Positions 28,149 to 38,053 of a stretch of DNA of 64,000 nucleotides are shown one piece after another. The notes under the pieces were generated by a model, which was given only the letters and a program-made list of their open reading frames with translations, was not told the DNA's origin and searched no databases. Position numbers and translations under genes: made by a program. Location: positions 159,403-223,402 of the forward strand of contig JBOEGF010000027.1 of NCBI GenBank assembly GCA_050633305.1, written 5' to 3'. Each line of letters starts with the position of its first letter. Position 1 is the stretch's first letter. This DNA is from Nannocystales bacterium. GTDB taxonomy: Bacteria; Myxococcota_A; Polyangia; Nannocystales; Nannocystaceae.

Positions 28149-29900
28149 CTACAGGGACGCCGACTCGGGCCGCCCGGCTCCGCGGGAGAGCCGAACCGCG
28201 ACCTCCAAGAGCTCCCCGGTCCGTACCGGTTTGACAACGAACGCGTCCGCTCCCGCATCGAGTGCAGCGGCTTCGGCATCCAAACTCCCGCTGAGCACCA
28301 GCACAGGCGGGGCGTCGACACTCGACATCGACGCGAGCACATCGACCCCGGTTCTCCCCGGCATCTCCAGATCCAGCACGACCAGGTCGAACGCCTCGCT
28401 GCGAAGTCTCTCCTCCGCCTCGCGGCCATCCGCAGCGGTCTCCACACGCGCTCCGACGTGCTCGAGCACTCGGGCAACCACTTCGCGCACGGTGGCGTCG
28501 TCGTCGACGACCAAGACACGTCGCCCGCGCAGCTCCCCCCGACGAGGCAGAGCCGGCTTGGACGGCTCCGATCGGGACTCCCGTGCCTTGGCATCCCAAG
28601 CAACTGTGGGACCCGCCAAGGCATCCATGCTCACCCGGAAGCAGAGGCGTGTCCCTTGCGGACTGGTTTCGTCGACCCAGATCGCGCCCCCCATCGCCTC
28701 CACAAAGTCGCGAGAGATCGACAGACCCAGCCCCACCCCCCCACCCACTGAAGCCTGCTCGCCTTGCTGCCAGGGCTCGAACACATCTCGGATGACGGTT
28801 GGAGCGATGCCCACGCCCGTATCCTCCACGGCGAACGACAACCCTCCCTGCTCGGCGGCACGGCCAACGGCGACCCGAACCTGGCCCTCGCGCGTGTGCT
28901 TCAGCGCATTGCCGAGCAAGTTGAGCAAGACCTGACGAAGCCGCGCACGGTCTCCGGACCAGCGGTCGGGGGTCTCGGACTCGACATCGACGACCAATCG
29001 GATCCGCGAACCATCCATTTGGGGCGAGACGACCTCAACCACATCGTCGAGCAACTTGGAGACTGAGAATTCCTCCCGTCGTTGGGGCAACACCCCATCC
29101 TCGAGCCGCACCAGGTCGAGAATGTCGTCGAGGGTTCGCAGCGTGGCCCGGGCGGTTCGCTGCAGCTGCCCCAGAGACTGTCCCCCACCCCCGGAATCGA
29201 CGTCGAGCATGTCCGCGGTCAACGCGAGGCTCGTCATCGGCGAGCGCAACTCGTGGCTCAGCATCGCGAGCAACCGGTGCCGTGCAACACGGTCCGTACG
29301 AGCTTGGGCCTCGGCCGCCTTCCGATCCCGGGTCTCCGCCTGCAAACGATGCATCGCTCGCTGCAGCGCCTGCTCTCGCCTCCTGCGCTCTCGATGGAAC
29401 GCGACCGCCAAGACCGCCGATAGACCCAGTACGGCGAAGAGGTTGGGTACCGACAACGGGTGCTGCCACATGGCATCGGCAGGATCCGCCCTCAATGCCG
29501 TCCACCCGACTGCAACCGCCGTCGCCGGCACCCACAAGAACAGATGCCGCGCACGACCCCACAACGTCGCCCAGGTTGGCACCAGCAGGAACCAGACGAC
29601 GCCGATGTTCGGCGTCCCCCTCGTCACGTCGAGGACGATGGTCTGGTAGACGAGGAAGCTTCCCGAAACGATGTGCAGGGCGAGGCTGCGCCCGATTCGC
29701 GGGCTGAGCAGGATCGCCGAGCCCATGATCAGGAGTTCGGCCGTCAGGAGCCAGGACTCCAGCGAGCTCGCGAACACACCGACAAGAACCGCAAACGCGA
29801 GCCCGAGGGCGCCAAACGACCCGCGCACCAGCGGCCACGAAGGCGTCGCACCGTCGATGAGCGCGCCCTCGTCGACCGCAGATGCCTCTGCCGACCCCAC
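28149..29900 (-). CDS. Membrane hybrid histidine kinase/response regulator
   Basis: SHELRSPM, NLLGNALKHT, DTGVG, GLGLSIS; receiver VLVVDDD...DLEMP; start inferred. Confidence 0.9.
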   Translation of the reverse strand: MGSAEASAVDEGALIDGATPSWPLVRGSFGALGLAFAVLVGVFASSLESWLLTAELLIMGSAILLSPRIGRSLALHIVSGSFLVYQTIVLDVTRGTPNIGVVWFLLVPTWATLWGRARHLFLWVPATAVAVGWTALRADPADAMWQHPLSVPNLFAVLGLSAVLAVAFHRERRRREQALQRAMHRLQAETRDRKAAEAQARTDRVARHRLLAMLSHELRSPMTSLALTADMLDVDSGGGGQSLGQLQRTARATLRTLDDILDLVRLEDGVLPQRREEFSVSKLLDDVVEVVSPQMDGSRIRLVVDVESETPDRWSGDRARLRQVLLNLLGNALKHTREGQVRVAVGRAAEQGGLSFAVEDTGVGIAPTVIRDVFEPWQQGEQASVGGGVGLGLSISRDFVEAMGGAIWVDETSPQGTRLCFRVSMDALAGPTVAWDAKARESRSEPSKPALPRRGELRGRRVLVVDDDATVREVVARVLEHVGARVETAADGREAEERLRSEAFDLVVLDLEMPGRTGVDVLASMSSVDAPPVLVLSGSLDAEAAALDAGADAFVVKPVRTGELLEVAVRLSRGAGRPESASL

Positions 29901-30011
29901 ACGCAGAGAATGCCAGCTGTCCTCGACACGCAGTGTGCGCAGCCGGCCCGATCTGGCCCACCTCGGGGAATACACCCCCTGTGCGGCCGAAAGGACCGAA
30001 GCGCGCGGAGT

Positions 30012-30371
30012 CTACTTGACCTGCTCGTCGCGACGATCGGGATGCTCGTTGTACCAAGTCTGCAGGGACTCATGGCTGATCTCGACCCGGAGATCGGCCT
30101 CCTGCACGACACACTGGCAGCCTAGCCGTGAACTCGGGCGGACATCAAAGCCCATGTCCAAACGGTCTTCCTCGGCCTCCTCCATCTCCTCGAGCGAGGC
30201 GAGCCCCTCCTTGATGTAGACGTGGCACGACGAGCACGCACAAACGCCCCCGCAGGCGGAGCCTAGTTTGACCCCATGCTCTTCGGCAATCTCGAGGAGG
30301 TTGGAAGACGAGGCTTTAACCTCGACTTCAGAGGTGGCGCCTTCAGGGTCGACGAACGTGATCTTGGGCAT
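30012..30371 (-). CDS. fdx: ISC 2Fe-2S ferredoxin
   Basis: ACGGVCACSSCHV, SRLGCQ; isc context. Confidence 0.92.
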   Translation of the reverse strand: MPKITFVDPEGATSEVEVKASSSNLLEIAEEHGVKLGSACGGVCACSSCHVYIKEGLASLEEMEEAEEDRLDMGFDVRPSSRLGCQCVVQEADLRVEISHESLQTWYNEHPDRRDEQVK

Positions 30372-30385
30372 CGTGGATCTCGCGA

Positions 30386-32356
30386 TCAGGTTTGCTGGGG
30401 GGTATGGCTTCCGCGTCGCTCTTCGAGCGTTTCCTCGGCGGCCAGGGTCGATTCAATTTCACCGAGGGACTTGCCCTCCATGCCGGACAACAACGCCCGT
30501 TCCATGCGACGGCGGGCGAATGCTTCGCTGACGCTCTCGAGATGCTCCCGAGCCTTCTTGAGCTCGGCAGGCGTCCCGGCAGGGTTGGCCATGGCTTCGT
30601 CGGTGGCGACGAGCGCGGCAACGATCAGCTCGCGCTCCTCCGCGGGCAGCAGGCTTTCGAGATGTCCGACCTCTTCAAGTGCCGTGCGGACCGCCAGCGA
30701 CACGCGGCCGGTCTCGACACGTCCCTCCGCGAGGTTGCGGGCTTCAAAGTCGGCCTCAGCGTTGTCCAGGCTCTCCATCACCAACGAGTCGACGGCGGCC
30801 TCGTCCAGGCCGTAGGTCGGCTTGACCTCGACGGTCTGTTTGACGCCCGTCATCAGCTCTTTGGCCGTGACGGTGAGCAACGCGTCTGCGTCCAGCTGAA
30901 ACGACACTTCGACGCGCGCCATGGACGGCGGCAGCTGAGGGATCCCTCGCAGCTCGAACTTGGCGAGCGAGCGACAATCGGACGCCAGCTCGCGCTCGCC
31001 CTGGACGACATGGAACACCATGCCGGTCTGCTGCTCGGAGTAGTTCGTGAAGACCTGCCGCGCGCCGATGGGGATCGTCGCGTTCCTCGGAATGAGCTGC
31101 TCCACGATGCCGCCCATCGTCTCGATGCCAAGGCTCAGCGGAACGACATCGAGCAGGGTGACGCCCTCGCGAGCGCTTCCCGACAGGATGTCCGCCTGAA
31201 TCGCCGCGCCGTAGGCCACGACGCGGTCCGGGTCCAGGTCGCACAGTGGCGGCCGCTTGAAGGTCTTCTCGACCACCTCCCGCACCTTCGGCACCCGGGT
31301 CGAGCCACCGACCAGCACAACCCCGTGCAAATCGTCTGCGGTGACGTCGGCATCCTTGAGCGTCTGCCGACACGCCTTGACGGTTCGACGCACGATCGGG
31401 CTGATCAACCCCTCGAATGCCTCGCGGGTGACCTCGAAACCAGTGAGGCTACAGGTGGGAACATCCACCGACACCGTTTCGGCATCGCTCAGGCGCTCCT
31501 TCGCGCTTCGAGCCACGGCCAACGCCTCTTCGCGTTGCCCAGCAGTCGCGGTTGAGACACCCGCGGCCTCGAGCAGATGGGATGCAAGCGCGTGGTCGAA
31601 GTCGTCACCGCCGAGCGCCGAGTCGCCCCCGGTCGCGAGCACCTGAAAGACCCCCTCGCGAAGGCGGAGGATACTGATGTCGAACGTTCCGCCACCGAGG
31701 TCGTAGATGGCAAACAGGCCTTGCTTGCCGCCGTCGTTTTGATCGAGTCCGTACGCGAGCGCCGCAGCGGTGGGCTCCGCGAGCAACCGATAGACCCTCA
31801 ACCCTGCGATCCGCCCAGCATCCTTGGTGGCTTGCCGCTGTGCGTCGTCGAAGTACGCGGGCACCGTGATCACGGCGCCATCGATCGGCTCACCGAGTTC
31901 GGCCTCGGCGCGAGTCTTGAGCACGCGAAGGATCTCGGCCGAGACCTCCATCGGCGTCACGGCCCGCTGGGCCCCCATGTCGAAACGAACGACTTGGTCC
32001 GCCTCGTCCTTGGGCGGCGCCATCGGATACGGGTGGGCACCGACCTCGTCCCGTCCACGTCCCATGAAGCGCTTGACCGAGCTGATGACCCGCGCCGGGT
32101 TGGCGACCTGCTCGGCACGAGCCTGCGCTCCAACCACGACGTCCTCTCCGACGTAGGAAACCACCGAGGGAAGAATGTCGTGGCCCTCGGCATCCTTGAC
32201 CTCGCGCGGCAGCTCACCGTGAGGTGCCAACGCGACCAGGCTGTGCGTCGTCCCCAGGTCGATGCCGATGCCACGGCCGGGCGCTCGCTTGGACGCCGCA
32301 GGAGCCGTCGGCTCCTCGATCTGGAAGAGGGCTCCGGGGTCGAAGTCGTCACTCAT
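30386..32356 (-). CDS. hscA: Fe-S assembly chaperone HscA
   Basis: [32 protein letters not shown]; isc context. Confidence 0.92.
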
Positions 32357-32359
32357 GAT

Positions 32360-32872
32360 TCAGCCTTCGTCAATCTCATCGATCTCGTCGATGAGGCGCT
32401 GCAGGTACCGACGGACCACCAGGTGCCGAGACGCGGCGTCTGTGTCTCCGTCGGCGATGGCGGTGACCGCCGCGGCGAGCGCATCCCCGAGTTGGCCGTC
32501 GATGTCTTCGCGCAAGTCGTCCAGGGCGTCGGCCCCCGCCGAGCGAGCCTCAGCGACGCGCTCGCGATGCTCGATCATCTCGATCAGAAACGCCTGCGGC
32601 ATCTTGGGGGCCCCCACCTCGGGGTCGGAGGAGTCGAGGTCTCGGCCACCGAGCTTCACCAAGTACTCCGCACGCTTCGCGGGGTCCCGAAGCGTCCTGT
32701 ACGCCTCGTTGATCGCGGCGCTGGCCTCCATCGCGGTGCGCTTGGCCGACGAGTCGTCCTGGTTGACCTTGTCCGGATGCGCGTTGGCTGCGCGCGCGAG
32801 GTACTCGGTCTCGAGGGTGTCGCGATCCAGCGCATGCTGGCGCGGCAGCCCCAGCCGTTCGAAATGATCCAT
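32360..32872 (-). CDS. hscB: Co-chaperone HscB
   Basis: J-domain HPD, INEAYRTLRDP..RAEYL. Confidence 0.9.
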   Translation of the reverse strand: MDHFERLGLPRQHALDRDTLETEYLARAANAHPDKVNQDDSSAKRTAMEASAAINEAYRTLRDPAKRAEYLVKLGGRDLDSSDPEVGAPKMPQAFLIEMIEHRERVAEARSAGADALDDLREDIDGQLGDALAAAVTAIADGDTDAASRHLVVRRYLQRLIDEIDEIDEG

Positions 32873-32944
32873 GTTGCAAGACTTCAGCGGGTCGCCCAAA
32901 GACGCCCGCTTTGCAGAGGGTTGCTGCCGATCGGAGCGCCGGCT

Positions 32945-33331
32945 CTAGAACGAGACCGACTCGCCGCAGCCGCAGGAGTCGTCGACGTTGGGGTTTTCGA
33001 AGCGGAAGCCGTGACCGCGGATTCCGGTTTCGAAGTCGAGGCGAGTGCCTTTGACCAGGACCATGCTCTTGGGGTCCACGTACACGCGGACACCGAAGGC
33101 TTCGACCACGTGATCGCTGGATCGCGGCTCACCGTCTTCGAACTGGAACATGTACGAGTACCCGGTACAGCCGCCCCCGCGAATGCCGAAGCGGATTGCG
33201 CCGCCCGGGGTTCCGCGCTTGTCGAGTTGGCCGCGCATGACCTTGGCAGCACGAGCCGTGACCACGACCGTGTTGGCCGCGGGCGCAGGAGCCTCGGTGG
33301 ACGGGGTTGGCGATGCGGGTGCTGCGTTCAC
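32945..33331 (-). CDS. iscA: Fe-S carrier IscA (HesB family)
   Basis: GGGCTGYSY, CGCGESVSF; GTG overlaps the iscU stop. Confidence 0.92.
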   Translation of the reverse strand: MNAAPASPTPSTEAPAPAANTVVVTARAAKVMRGQLDKRGTPGGAIRFGIRGGGCTGYSYMFQFEDGEPRSSDHVVEAFGVRVYVDPKSMVLVKGTRLDFETGIRGHGFRFENPNVDDSCGCGESVSF

Positions 33332-33717
33332 TGCGGCCCGTTCCCGTTCTTCTCTTGGTAGTCCTTGATCGCCGCCTTGATCGCATCTTCGGCGAGCACC
33401 GAGCAGTGAATCTTCACAGGAGGAAGCGCGAGTTCCTCGGCGATCTGGCTGTTCTGAATCGACCCCGCCTCCTCGATGCTCATGCCCTTGACCCACTCGG
33501 TCACGAGCGAGCTGCTTGCGATGGCCGACCCGCAGCCGTAGGTCTTGAACTTTGCGTCCTTGATGACGCCGTCCTCAACCTTGATCTGCAGCTTCATCAC
33601 GTCGCCACAAGCCGGAGCACCCACGATGCCCGTGCCCACGTCGTCGTCGCCCTTGTCGAGGCTGCCCACGTTGCGGGGGTTGTCGTAGTGTTCGATGACC
33701 TTTTCGCTGTACGCCAT
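33328..33717 (-). CDS. iscU: Fe-S scaffold IscU
   Basis: GAPACGDVM, GCGSAIAS, LPPVKIHCS. Confidence 0.96.
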   Translation of the reverse strand: MAYSEKVIEHYDNPRNVGSLDKGDDDVGTGIVGAPACGDVMKLQIKVEDGVIKDAKFKTYGCGSAIASSSLVTEWVKGMSIEEAGSIQNSQIAEELALPPVKIHCSVLAEDAIKAAIKDYQEKNGNGPQ

Positions 33718-33754
33718 GGTGTTGAATCCTTGAGGTTCGAGAGTGGGACGGAGC

Positions 33755-34975
33755 CTAGTGGTGTGCCCACTGGATAGAGTCGAGGTCGATGCCTTCCTGC
33801 ACCATCTCCCACAGGGGAGACATCTCGCGCAGTCGGCTGACGTGTGTGCGAAGCAGCCCGACGACGAAGTCGATCTCGGCTTTCGTCGTCATGCGGCCGA
33901 TCGTCATGCGGAGGCTGGAGTGCGCAAGCTCGTCGTTGAGGCCCATCGCCCGCAACACGTAGCTGGGCTCGAGGCTTGCCGAGGTGCATGCCGAACCCGA
34001 CGACAGCGCAACATCCTTGAGCGCCATCAGCAGCGACTCGCCTTCGATGTAGGCGAAGCTCAGGTTGAGGTGGCCGGGGAGCATGTGCTCGGGGTGGCCG
34101 TTGAGGATCACGTGCTCGATCGAACCGGTAAGCTCGGACTTCATGTAGTCCCGAAGCTCGCCGATGCGCTTCATGTCGTCGGCCATGTCCTCGCGGGCGA
34201 TGCGGGCGGCTTCCCCGAATCCTGCGATGTTCGGCACGGCCAAGGTGCCCGAGCGGTTGCCGCGTTCGTGGCCACCACCGTGGATCTGCGCGGCGAGACG
34301 GACGCGAGGCTTGCGGCGCCGAACGTAGAGCGCGCCCACGCCCTTGGGGCCGTAGATCTTGTGGGCCGAGATCGACATGAGGTCGATGCTCATCGCCTCG
34401 ACGTCGATGGGAAGCTTGCCAAACGTCTGCGTGGCATCGGTGTGGAACAACACCTTGTGCTCCCGACAGACCTTGCCGATCTCGGCGAGGGGCATGACCA
34501 CGCCCGTCTCGTTGTTGCCGTGCATGACCGAGACCAGGACGGTCTTCTCGGTGATCGCATCGGCGACCTGCTGCGGGGTGACAAGCCCGCCCTTGTCGAC
34601 CTCGAGGTACGTGACGTCCACGCCCCGTCGCTCCAGGAACTTGCAGGTGTCGAGCACGGCCTTGTGCTCGGTGTTCACCGTGATGATGTGGTTGCCCTTC
34701 TCGGCCAGGTACTCGGCCACGCCCTTGATGGCGAGGTTGTTGGACTCGGTCGCGCCGCTGGTCCACGTGACCTCTTTGGGGTCCGCACCGATCGTCTTGG
34801 CGATCTCTTCACGGGCGTTCTCGACGGCTTCTTCCGCTTCCCAGCCGAACGCGTGTGTCCGGCTGGCCGAGTTGCCGTACGCCTTGGTGAAGAACGGCAA
34901 CATCTTGTCGAGCACACGCTGGTCGACGGGACAGGTGGCGGCGTAGTCGAAGTAGACGGGGGTCTGGACGCTCAT
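33755..34975 (-). CDS. iscS: Cysteine desulfurase IscS
   Basis: [26 protein letters not shown]-terminal WAHH. Confidence 0.96.
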
Positions 34976-34982
34976 GGTGCGC

Positions 34983-35531
34983 TTACGGGGTGCTTGGATC
35001 CTGGAAGGATCGGATCTGGACGACGGCCGAGGTGCTCCGGCCCGTCGTAGGGGAATGAATGCCCGCGACCAGCGACGGTGCTTCGGTATCCGAGTGCACG
35101 CCGTCGCACGAGACACATCCATCGACGAGATGCTCGTGGCTGCACGCCCGGCATCCCTCGAGGTAGGCAAGGCTCTCGGAGAGGTCTCGCTCGAGCTGAA
35201 GAAGCTTCTCGACCTGGGCCCGGGTATCGGCGAGCCGGCCGCGGAAGTTCTCCCGGAGGCTCTGCATGGCATCGGGGCCGGACGAGGAGCTTTCCACCGT
35301 CTCGAGCAGGCCCTGAATCTGAGGCAACGAGAAACCGAGCGCCTGGAGCTTGGCGATCCAGTAAACGCGGGCGACCTCGTCGGCCCCGTAGAGGCGGTAG
35401 TTCCCCTCCGAGCGCTTCGGCTGGAGCAAGCCCATCTCTTCGTACAACCGCAGCGCACGGACGGTCTTGCCGGTCATCCGGGCAAGCTCGCCGACTTTCA
35501 TGCGATGCGAGATGTGTGCAGAGGTGGTCAT
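34983..35531 (-). CDS. MerR-family transcriptional regulator with CxxC-x8-CxxC tail
   Basis: [38 protein letters not shown]; coiled coil; [16 protein letters not shown]. Confidence 0.9.
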
Positions 35532-35570
35532 AGACTCTAACCCTTCCGTACGGGCCGGGTTGGCGGCGGG

Positions 35571-35599
35571 AGTCTGTAGGTACGCCAGGAGTCTGTCAA
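35571..35599 (-). promoter_or_regulatory. Putative sigma70 promoter of the merR-isc operon
   Basis: TTGACA-17 nt-CAGACT on the minus strand. Confidence 0.6.
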
Positions 35600-35619
35600 C
35601 CCCGCCCTCAGCCTCCAAA

Positions 35620-35641
35620 ACCCTACCCCTTACGGAAGGGT
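35620..35641. promoter_or_regulatory. MerR-type operator-like palindrome
   Basis: ACCCTACC-ccttac-GGAAGGGT, 7 of 8 arm positions complementary; related site at 35539-35561. Confidence 0.5.
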
Positions 35642-35683
35642 CAGGCAACCCGGCCCGCAAGCATCAGCGCGCTTGGCGCAGAA

Positions 35684-35720
35684 CGAGAAAACGCCGCCCA
35701 CGGGGACCCGGGGCGGCGTC
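35684..35720 (-). terminator. Rho-independent terminator
   Basis: ACGCCGCCC/GGGCGGCGT stem followed by TTTCTC on the minus strand, just after the stop at 35741. Confidence 0.7.
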
Positions 35721-35740: not shown

Positions 35741-38053
35741 TCAGCCCTTCTTTTTCTTTTTCCCTTTCTTCTTCTTGCCCTTCTTCTTCTTGCCCTTCTT
35801 CTTCTTGCCCTTCTTCTTCTTGTCGGCATCATCGTCGACCGACGGCTTGGGCACGGGCGGCTTCTTGGGCTCTACGACAGGGCCGTCTTTCTTCTCGTCG
35901 GCTTTCTTCTCGTCAGCCTTCTTCCCGTCGGCTTTCTTTTCGTCAGCCTTCTTCTCGTCGGCCTTCTTCTCATCGGCCTTCTTCTCATCGGCCTTCTTCT
36001 CATCGGCCTTCTTCTCGTCGTCCGGCTCGACCGGCGTGTGCTCGGGTACGACAGGCTTGTGCTCCGGGATGATCTCCGGCTCGGGGTCCGACGGGTTCAC
36101 GCCCAGGTCCTGCGCCAGGGTCTCGTTGCCTAGGCCAGACACGGCGGCGTAGCCGATCGCACCCGCCACCGCCATCGCACCGACCCCACTGCCGACCAGG
36201 CTGCCGGGTCCCTCGCTGCCCGCCCGCGTGTGATACGCGAACGCCATCGCGGAACTCTCGTACTTGGTCGCCAAGGGCGCGAACGCTTCGGCGGGCGCTG
36301 TCCCCTCGGTGACCCGGTGCGCGGCGTCGAGCGCGGCGCGTCCCTCGTCCGTCGCGCGGTTTCCGATCCCTTGGATCGCGAGGTGAGCAACCGGCAGTGC
36401 GCTCCCGGCGGGCTTCTCGACCCACATCGAGCTGCTCGAGACCGGCGCCGTCAGGGCCAGACCCGCGATCACAGTCTCGGCATCAACGTCGGGGACGTTC
36501 TTGAGTGCCGCACGAAGGAGCTTGTGCAGGTGCTCGCCCTGCATGAAGTCCGCGGGGAGGTGCATCGCGAAAGCGACCTCCTCGCGCTTGAACCCTTCGG
36601 CCAGCGGTGCGGGCAGAGAGGCGAGCGTGTCGGCGCTGATTCCATCACCCGAGCCGTCGAGCAGCTTGCCCACGTTGGCGGTGTTGGGCCCGACCGCAAC
36701 GGTCAGTGCGTTGTTCGCCGCGAACGCCCAGCCGTCGAAATGTAGGCCCGCAAACGCCTTCACGATGTCGGCCTCGGGAATCCCGGTGAGCTCTACGTGG
36801 AGCGCATCCGCCATCGTCGTGCCGTGATTCACGGGCACCTTTTCGATCTTCAGCTCGCTCCCCTCGAGCTCTGGAATTGCCTTTGGAGCCTCTTTCGAGG
36901 CCTCGAGGGCAAGTTCCCATGCTTTGGAGAACGGCGCGACGTCCCGGATGCCGGCTTGCAGCACCAAGCCACCGGGGTCCACCGAGCCGGCGACCATGAA
37001 CTCACCGGTCATGGTCTCGAACATCTTGGCCACCTCGGGCGGAGCATCGCCGGCCGCTGCCGCCATCCCCACCCCCACCAGCGCAGAGTTGGCGCGACCC
37101 CACGCGAACCCAGCGCCAGGTTGCACGTTGGCCAAGGTGTGGGTCTCGCCCCCTTCGAGCGCTGCGAGCCCTTGCTCGACGTCCCTGTCGACCGGGAACA
37201 CGCCTGCGAGGTGGACGAGGCCGGGCAAGGTCGTCACCGCGAAGATCGCATCCTCGCTCGGCATGTGGACCAGCACGTTGGCATCGTCGAGCGCGACGGC
37301 TGCCAGCTTGTCTTGCAGCGCTTTTCGTACCGCACTCGGGTCCTCCGCCGGTTTGTAGGCGTCGAGCGTGGCCTGATCGTCGGCGCAGACGCTCCAACCC
37401 TCGTGGCCAGCGAGCGAGCCGCACGCCATGTCGTCGGCGTCGTCCTCTCCTAGGGCTTTCGCGAGATTCGCGACCGCGTTCGGATCGTCGGCCGCGAACA
37501 CCATGACGGGGTCCTTGTTGACGTTGATGATCGCCGCGCCATCTTTGAGGCGAAGGCCCGACGCACCCAGCGCCTCGATGACCTTCTTGCCCTTGGTGTC
37601 CATGACCTCATAGGCCTCGTTCACTTCCCGAAGGTCTGAGGAGGTCTCGGGGGACGCGGCCAGCTTCTTGAGCGGCGCGTCCACGAAACGCATCCCTTCC
37701 TCGTAGTAGTCGGCGAGGACCGAGGCGTCCCGGATGATGGCGAACTCGGCGTCGGCGTCGGGGACGAAGGAGAGCATCAGGTCGAGGCCCGTGTGCATCG
37801 GCTCGACGGGAATCGGCTCCGGCGGTGCGACCTTCGGCTCCTCATCGTCCTTCTTGGCCTCGGCTTCTTTGGACTCGTCCTTCGATTCCTCGCTGGGCTT
37901 GTCCTTGCCGGCATCTTTGTCCTCCTCGCCGCCAACCTTCGCGGCGATTTCCTCGGCCTTGTCGCACCCTCCGAGCGTGACGGAACTCGACAGGAACGCG
38001 ACGGCGAGCGGAATGGCCACGGTCGGTCGGTGGGGCGGTCTCCAAGATCGCAT
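35741..38053 (-). CDS. Large lipoprotein with EKKAD and KKKKG repeat tail
   Basis: Lipobox LGGC; 770 aa; low-complexity C-terminus. Confidence 0.8.
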   Translation of the reverse strand: MRSWRPPHRPTVAIPLAVAFLSSSVTLGGCDKAEEIAAKVGGEEDKDAGKDKPSEESKDESKEAEAKKDDEEPKVAPPEPIPVEPMHTGLDLMLSFVPDADAEFAIIRDASVLADYYEEGMRFVDAPLKKLAASPETSSDLREVNEAYEVMDTKGKKVIEALGASGLRLKDGAAIINVNKDPVMVFAADDPNAVANLAKALGEDDADDMACGSLAGHEGWSVCADDQATLDAYKPAEDPSAVRKALQDKLAAVALDDANVLVHMPSEDAIFAVTTLPGLVHLAGVFPVDRDVEQGLAALEGGETHTLANVQPGAGFAWGRANSALVGVGMAAAAGDAPPEVAKMFETMTGEFMVAGSVDPGGLVLQAGIRDVAPFSKAWELALEASKEAPKAIPELEGSELKIEKVPVNHGTTMADALHVELTGIPEADIVKAFAGLHFDGWAFAANNALTVAVGPNTANVGKLLDGSGDGISADTLASLPAPLAEGFKREEVAFAMHLPADFMQGEHLHKLLRAALKNVPDVDAETVIAGLALTAPVSSSSMWVEKPAGSALPVAHLAIQGIGNRATDEGRAALDAAHRVTEGTAPAEAFAPLATKYESSAMAFAYHTRAGSEGPGSLVGSGVGAMAVAGAIGYAAVSGLGNETLAQDLGVNPSDPEPEIIPEHKPVVPEHTPVEPDDEKKADEKKADEKKADEKKADEKKADEKKADGKKADEKKADEKKDGPVVEPKKPPVPKPSVDDDADKKKKGKKKKGKKKKGKKKKGKKKKKG
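35745..36018 (-). repeat. Two 15-bp coding tandem repeat arrays (KKKKG and EKKAD)
   Basis: Repeated cccttcttcttcttg and tcggccttcttctc(a/g) units on the plus strand. Confidence 0.85.

Follow-up and report, generated by a model that had tools for sequence, protein, structure and literature searches.

The 64,000-nucleotide (nt) stretch of Nannocystales bacterium DNA analyzed here, referred to as the window (assembly GCA_050633305.1, contig JBOEGF010000027.1, positions 159,403 to 223,402), comprises a complete iscSUA-hscBA-fdx operon for assembling iron-sulfur (Fe-S) clusters on its minus strand. The genes iscS, iscU, iscA, hscB, and hscA as well as fdx all lie in one operon headed by a gene for a MerR-family protein with four cysteines. 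A preliminary description of this locus had placed the MerR gene in the usual iscR position, ending 7 nt before iscS, and had reported that the operon lacks an Rrf2 gene. Both statements held: the open reading frame (ORF) and operon coordinates leave a 7-nt gap between the MerR stop codon and the iscS ATG at 34975, and no Rrf2 gene occurs in the operon or near isc in this genome, whose three clear Rrf2 genes are located on different contigs and have unrelated neighbors. No match to sufB was found in the genome (11 Mb, 92% complete), and fdx is not followed at this locus by a tRNA as in Myxococcus xanthus.

The predicted regulator matches the Pfam domains MerR_1, MerR, and MerR-DNA-bind (PF13411, PF00376, and PF09278) above the cut-off and shows no match to the Rrf2 domain (PF02082). 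It comprises a winged helix-turn-helix (HTH) at about residues 11 to 81, a coiled coil at 85 to 129, a Cys tail, and a conserved P-x-L-V-x-G motif. The CxxC-x8-CxxC motif that had been read at about 35106 to 35153 is indeed there, as C127/C130/C139/C142. Its conservation, proposed at the outset as a check, is nearly complete: Cys occupies the four positions in 120, 119, 119, and 120 proteins, respectively, among the top 120 of 481 homologs, and the motif is, judged by sequence, not a product of chance. In addition, 125 of 149 new cluster representatives match Cx2-3C-x(4-45)-Cx2-3C; one more carries four Cys that were missed by slicing, and most of the others are short or cross into another frame. 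The two Cys pairs are mostly separated by 8 or 9 residues (range, 5 to 45), and CxxxC variants occur too. In a 66-row alignment (A2), the linker is variable and the P-x-L-V-x-G motif follows the Cys tail; since the rows were picked for carrying the motif, the invariant Cys residues in A2 are not independent evidence. Clusters dominated by Spirochaetota or Bacillota proteins also appear to resemble the regulator, a likeness known from the clusters alone.

In the AlphaFold model, residues 85 to 129 form a helix, the dimer helix, and C127 is placed where it ends, which is the position of the ligand loop in SoxR and CueR. The predicted local distance difference test score of the Cys tail is only 45 to 70, and fold searches barely probe the tail. 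All fold matches were MerR proteins; CadR, PbrR, MerR, and CueR were the nearest solved relatives, and TnrA and GlnR were the top matches for the HTH part. The named MerR hidden Markov models (SoxR, CueR, ZntR, CadR, etc.) all scored far under their cut-offs, with at best 60.6 bits for the CueR, ZntR, CadR, PbrR, and MerR models (cut-offs of at least 143) and 50.6 bits for the SoxR model TIGR01950 (cut-off, 116.9). SoxR, the [2Fe-2S] member of the family (PDB 2zhg and 2zhh), shares the MerR fold (Z score of 12.1 and root-mean-square deviation of 3.8 over 113 residues) and likewise carries four Cys where the dimer helix terminates. Its CIGCGCLSxxC motif (PMC11672702, available part) is nevertheless not found here, where the arrangement is Cx2-3C-x(5-45)-Cx2-3C, mostly x8, so the difference in Cys spacing from SoxR that had been pointed out before is real. 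By these sequence features, the protein is a member of the MerR superfamily and is neither SoxR, a CueR/ZntR-type metal sensor, nor an Rrf2 protein.

The metal-sensing MerR activators CueR, ZntR, CadR, PbrR, and MerR are still closest by sequence and fold. The regulator could thus be imagined as a mononuclear metal sensor, holding Fe(II) in a rubredoxin-like Cys4 site or Cu, Ag, Zn, or Cd as in CueR, ZntR, and CadR, and inducing Fe-S repair after metal damage. Database labels reading "copper efflux regulator" and a His within 9 residues after the fourth Cys in 46 of the 66 aligned members would fit such a sensor. However, every metal-MerR model stays far under its cut-off, the start of helix alpha5 (positions 76 to 92) carries any Cys in only 3 of the 66 members, no efflux or iron-uptake gene occurs among the 62 operator sites described below, and the operator is not spacer centered; we regard this explanation as quite improbable.

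Named relatives fall in Nannocystaceae and other Myxococcota, and in a species collection iscS directly follows the regulator gene at 58 of 58 close loci. A survey of 301 sampled Myxococcota genomes, which are not independent where related and are enriched for the class of the window, yielded 85 matches at E values of ≤1.6e-45 in 78 genomes, the next match being at 1.4e-38. Linkage to isc or suf, the other check suggested by the preliminary description, was borne out: 76 of the 85 are followed by an IscS-like gene and 9 by an extracytoplasmic function (ECF) sigma gene. The four-Cys motif is present in 83. By a comparison of lists made by hand, 67 of 92 iscU-positive genomes carry the regulator. 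No sufB match was found in 66 of the 78 regulator genomes, and the 11 without iscU all have sufB. In a quick tree from which one frameshifted row was left out, the 75 isc/suf-linked rows form one branch (Shimodaira-Hasegawa-like approximate likelihood ratio test value, 99) sorted by host family, and the ECF-linked and folE-linked rows fall outside it. The regulator gene stays beside iscS even where iscU has been lost (seven loci). Several suf-containing genomes (loci L099, L101, L103, L109, L119, L121, L135, and L116) have a merR-isc operon without iscU and with a diverged hscA, which looks like decay of the ISC system after a switch to SUF, and in genome G244 the regulator and operator head a hybrid iscS-iscA-sufB-sufC-sufD operon, with a sufT-like gene further on. 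A 1.8-Mb single-contig genome of family f2 (G094, locus L133) retains merR-isc and the operator. The isc operons of families f16 and f28 (L178 to L183, L191, and L192) have neither an Rrf2 nor a four-Cys MerR gene directly upstream and no operator.

From the upstream regions of 59 loci, we derived a 24-bp palindrome, AACYCTNAC-N6-GTNAGRGTT, as the candidate operator. It scores at least 15 bits in 72 of 85 held-out loci and in none of 425 shuffles, and 5 of the 13 misses belong to a distant folE-type subfamily. A strict form of the pattern occurred in 48 of the 77 genomes that carry the regulator and in none of the 77 that lack it (reversed-pattern controls, 0 and 2). When metagenomes were scanned with the operator pattern alone, 45 of 80 examined loci adjoined this MerR gene, 34 of them with iscS in view; by eye, the other 35 were telomere-like TTAGGG palindromes, terminator hairpins, or chance matches. 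The window has two copies, designated O1 and O2 (Table 1), and most relatives carry strong copies at the O1 offset. Both copies share one symmetric departure from the consensus, in the TTACGT/ACGTAA core, so that repression here may fall short of that in close relatives (for example, at L009). The GAC-N7-GTC box of RisR, the Rrf2 regulator of M. xanthus, is absent from this promoter; the operator core is one that we take to resemble the LiuR box, a likeness that the literature search did not confirm. We are highly confident that the regulator binds this palindrome.

Table 1. Predicted features of the merR-isc region (positions in the window)
Feature	Position	Strand	Basis or remark
fdx, 2Fe-2S ferredoxin	30012..30371	-	Pfam Fer2; best NCBIfam match fdx_isc, under cut-off
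hscA, chaperone	30386..32356	-	TIGR01991 over cut-off
hscB, co-chaperone	32360..32872	-	TIGR00714 over cut-off
iscA, A-type carrier	32945..33331	-	TIGR00049 over cut-off; inferred GTG start overlapping iscU stop
iscU, scaffold	33328..33717	-	TIGR01999 over cut-off
iscS, cysteine desulfurase	33755..34975	-	TIGR02006 over cut-off
Four-Cys MerR-family regulator, 182 aa from ATG	34983..35531	-	ORF call; Pfam matches
CxxC-x8-CxxC motif, C127/C130/C139/C142	35106..35153	-	Cys codons at 35153, 35144, 35117, 35108
Operator O1, degenerate, just downstream of predicted start site, ends 2 nt before ATG	35533..35556		11.9 bits
Predicted weak -10 hexamer CAGACT, 17 nt after -35	35571..35576	-	Position conserved in relatives
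Predicted -35 hexamer TTGACA	35594..35599	-	Sequence; same hexamer in relatives
Operator O2, upstream of -35	35619..35642		21.6 bits, top match in 11-Mb genome
Probable terminator, GC-rich hairpin then TTTT, after upstream lipoprotein-like gene	35691..35719	-	Inverted repeat and sequence

The hairpin probably separates the operon from the upstream lipoprotein-like gene; the terminator scan made no call there. That gene (35741-38053, minus strand) is a 770-aa ORF with KKADE repeats, a Lys-rich tail, and no Pfam match, and it is syntenic upstream of merR in most Nannocystaceae loci. On the other side, a hybrid histidine kinase gene (28149-29975, minus strand), the longest ORF of which begins 36 nt past fdx, may be reached by read-through from the isc operon.

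The position of the sites relative to the promoter bears on how the regulator might act. Across the 59 loci, a CAnnnT hexamer lies exactly 17 nt past the -35 element at an offset that was not selected for (C in 52, A in 56, and final T in 40), while the conservation of TTGAC is circular because that hexamer was picked by pattern. For the 110 loci at which a promoter was called, the 148 sites divide into 82 downstream of the -10 element, 46 upstream of the -35 element, 16 overlapping a hexamer, 3 beginning in the spacer, and 1 located far downstream. Site position ranges from well upstream of the start to downstream of it. The regulator might instead be a SoxR-like activator that binds the operator constitutively and switches isc on when its cluster is oxidized, as the weak -10 hexamer and the fact that MerR proteins are usually activators (PMC11672702, available part) would suggest. 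However, canonical MerR activators, SoxR included, need a site within a 19- to 20-bp spacer (PMC11672702, available part), and occlusion is therefore the simpler reading: a site centered in such a spacer was found at 0 of 130 loci with a site, the spacer here is 17 bp, the sites flank the promoter, and the targets differ from those of SoxR. The promoter geometry suggests a repressor rather than a SoxR-like twisting activator, an alternative that we deem very improbable, and we think it likely that the regulator represses. Repressor-type MerR proteins such as GlnR, TnrA, CarA/CarH, HspR, and LiuR provide a precedent for this fold acting by occlusion, although they do not carry the four-Cys tail.

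Sites away from the regulator gene are the strongest evidence that the operator concerns Fe-S supply and not only autoregulation. A predicted site precedes sufB at 9 of 11 stand-alone suf loci in genomes encoding the regulator elsewhere, one being borderline at 15 bits, although these span only six genera in two families; an Rrf2 gene leads one of the two misses. Among controls from genomes lacking the regulator, suf loci had a site in 0 of 8 cases and were Rrf2 led in 8 of 8, and isc loci had a site in 0 of 20 and were Rrf2 led in 10 of 20. The operator thus excludes Rrf2-led operons, alternating with Rrf2 regulators at isc and suf, and in five genomes the site is absent at merR-iscS and present at sufB. 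The strict pattern gave 62 sites in the 77 genomes; 53 belong to the promoter of the regulator itself, and the remaining 9 lie elsewhere. Two genomes have such sites before cysM-mec-moaD-moeZ, and an erpA/rhodanese-moeB divergon has one, with two weaker sites in relatives (three genomes). Two others precede tandem copies of an ORF without a Pfam or NCBIfam match (L231, G206:C16:77442 and 78689). Genes for thioredoxin, peroxidase, Zn transport, metal efflux or detoxification, and iron uptake were not found among the 62 sites. In the family of the window, 19 of 30 erpA promoters have the site, either in its 24-bp form or as a 23-bp version lying over the -10 hexamer, the latter having been defined after the data were seen (shuffles, 0/300 each; genomes without the regulator, 0/16). 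Two matrix scans for a wider regulon in the window's genome placed only the isc promoter above background, the other matches fitting the permuted-matrix background, and a 2-mismatch pattern applied to 67 genomes stayed at background level apart from the true sites among the matches listed.

Some of these targets would also suit a sensor of sulfur status, with a Cys tail that is persulfidated or that reads cysteine or sulfane-sulfur supply, possibly via IscS, in the manner of CymR and persulfide sensors. The retention of the gene beside iscS after loss of iscU and the operators before the cysM-mec-moaD-moeZ and rhodanese-moeB genes agree with this idea. On the other hand, scaffold and carrier genes (sufB and erpA) are commoner trans targets, persulfide sensors usually need two Cys, fewer than the four invariant ones here, and in this genome a separate Rrf2 gene precedes a cysteine-synthase-like gene, which together make a sulfur sensor improbable.

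On balance, we lean toward a dedicated feedback repressor of Fe-S biogenesis that binds an Fe-S cluster on a MerR scaffold and replaces IscR or RisR. A dimer would bind the 24-bp palindrome, two copies of which here flank a 17-bp sigma70-type promoter, in the start region and upstream of the -35 element, and the bound dimers would keep expression of merR-iscSUA-hscBA-fdx low. An Fe-S cluster ([4Fe-4S] or [2Fe-2S]) supplied by the ISC system would be held by the four Cys located where the dimer helix ends. When cluster supply falls through iron lack or oxidative or nitric oxide damage, the cluster would be lost or not loaded and binding would weaken, derepressing isc as well as, in lineages carrying the site, suf, erpA, and cysteine or sulfur-relay genes. 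Three points favor a cluster as the ligand: the targets are genes for cluster assembly, cluster carriers, and sulfur supply; the protein takes the place that cluster-binding Rrf2 proteins occupy in other organisms; and in anamorsin/Dre2, Fe-S clusters are bound by a CX2CX7CX2C motif (PMC8251831, available part). That the holo form is the repressing one is assumed from IscR and from RisR, whose holo form represses isc and suf in M. xanthus (PMC9973013, available part). We consider it fairly probable that the ligand is an Fe-S cluster and that the holo form represses.

Several observations weigh against this arrangement, beyond the narrow spread of the sufB sites and the late definition of the 23-bp erpA form. 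In the window itself, O1 is weak, a generic promoter and terminator scan called no promoter, and the -10 hexamer is weak; the erpA promoter of this genome has only a half-site (2 bits), and in other families having the regulator an erpA site was found in only 1 of 16 cases. A distant sister MerR subfamily with the same four-Cys tail, ending in P..LW, precedes folE (G000:C76:11415-11840; L152 to L156; also in this genome); it lacks the 24-bp operator, and one of its members (G004) heads iscS-iscU. Family f36 has a paralog, preceded by the same operator, at the head of an ECF sigma gene (L098, L100, L102, L104, L106, L108, L110, L111, and L114), with queG near several of these loci; in G105 and G115 (L200 and L229), the ECF sigma gene keeps the operator without the paralog. 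Strict-pattern sites also precede two ECF sigma genes, one RpoH-like sigma gene (a perfect operator; L214, G244:C14:717893), and one Crp-family regulator gene (L232, G014:C50:9733), and the sigma-factor targets hint at a broader stress role. Finally, double CxxC motifs often bind Zn, and variably spaced CxxC pairs are just as typical of a Zn or mononuclear-iron site as of a cluster site. The main rival explanation accordingly keeps the regulon and the operator and has the four Cys hold Zn, as a thiol or redox switch or a structural site, with oxidation or electrophiles causing the repressor to let go of genes for Fe-S repair and for stress sigma factors. The flexible spacing of the Cys pairs, the shared tail of the folE-linked subfamily, and the operators at ECF sigma and RpoH-like genes all speak for such a switch. 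Against it, most targets are Fe-S assembly and sulfur-supply genes, the 62 strict-pattern sites include none at a thioredoxin, peroxidase, or Zn-transport gene, and the operator alternates with Rrf2 regulators in a slot of Fe-S-binding proteins; we hold it to be unlikely. The preliminary description had suggested a distinct Fe-S or metal-sensing feedback regulator. Its first half is supported, and the conserved operator, the trans sites at suf, erpA, and cysM operons, and the exclusion from Rrf2-led operons make a dedicated regulator of Fe-S biogenesis likely; sensing of a toxic metal is disfavored.

IscR, the [2Fe-2S] Rrf2 protein of E. coli and other Proteobacteria, is likewise encoded by the first gene of iscSUA-hscBA-fdx, and autorepression is probable here. 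IscR controls erpA, and its regulon extends to suf as do the predicted sites of the present regulator. The roles of IscR at isc and suf are described in PMC9973013 (available part); the regulator described here differs from it by its MerR fold, its two CxxC pairs in place of the three Cys of IscR, and its operator. RisR, a probable [4Fe-4S] protein from the same phylum, is also a single regulator with sites at both isc and suf, and it represses by promoter occlusion (PMC9973013, available part), as proposed here. The fold and the box are different, however, and RisR is encoded with suf, whereas the MerR gene lies with isc, mostly in genomes without a sufB match. M. xanthus uses RisR, and MerR proteins are not mentioned in the available part of that source. 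SufR, an ArsR-like (COG2345) [4Fe-4S] protein of cyanobacteria and actinobacteria, is another non-Rrf2 protein recruited to repress Fe-S biogenesis (PMC9973013; bioRxiv 10.64898/2025.12.26.696629; available parts), although its fold is unrelated and it is linked to suf. Both features of the IscR-like functional class, a gene encoded with isc or suf and a conserved site on those promoters, are found here. Because its gene is the first of the isc operon and predicted sites precede other Fe-S and cysteine-supply genes in relatives, the regulator probably does IscR's job, and it is very likely that this MerR subfamily regulates Fe-S biogenesis in many Myxococcota.

No description of a MerR regulator of isc or suf was found in the openly available literature, judged on titles and abstract openings without supplementary regulon tables, and the available part of PMC11138216 mentions neither MerR nor SoxR. 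The subfamily is real and widespread and appears to be undescribed. To our knowledge, the known sensors of Fe-S biogenesis are Rrf2 proteins or SufR, and SoxR, an activator, is the one well-known Fe-S protein of the MerR family. We see an even chance that the regulator represents a third class of Fe-S homeostasis regulators beside Rrf2 proteins (IscR and RisR) and SufR, namely, a MerR-fold repressor with a CxxC-x8-CxxC cluster that would be the commonest isc regulator in the sampled Myxococcota, would track the cell's change from ISC to SUF through transfer of its operator to sufB, and would couple cluster status to cysteine supply and to ECF and RpoH sigma factors. If true, the MerR fold would have provided its own, independent answer to the problem that those sensors solve, in the form of a feedback repressor with a cluster-binding motif new to the MerR family. 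In many natural-product-rich myxobacteria, the regulator appears to control the only Fe-S machinery detected.

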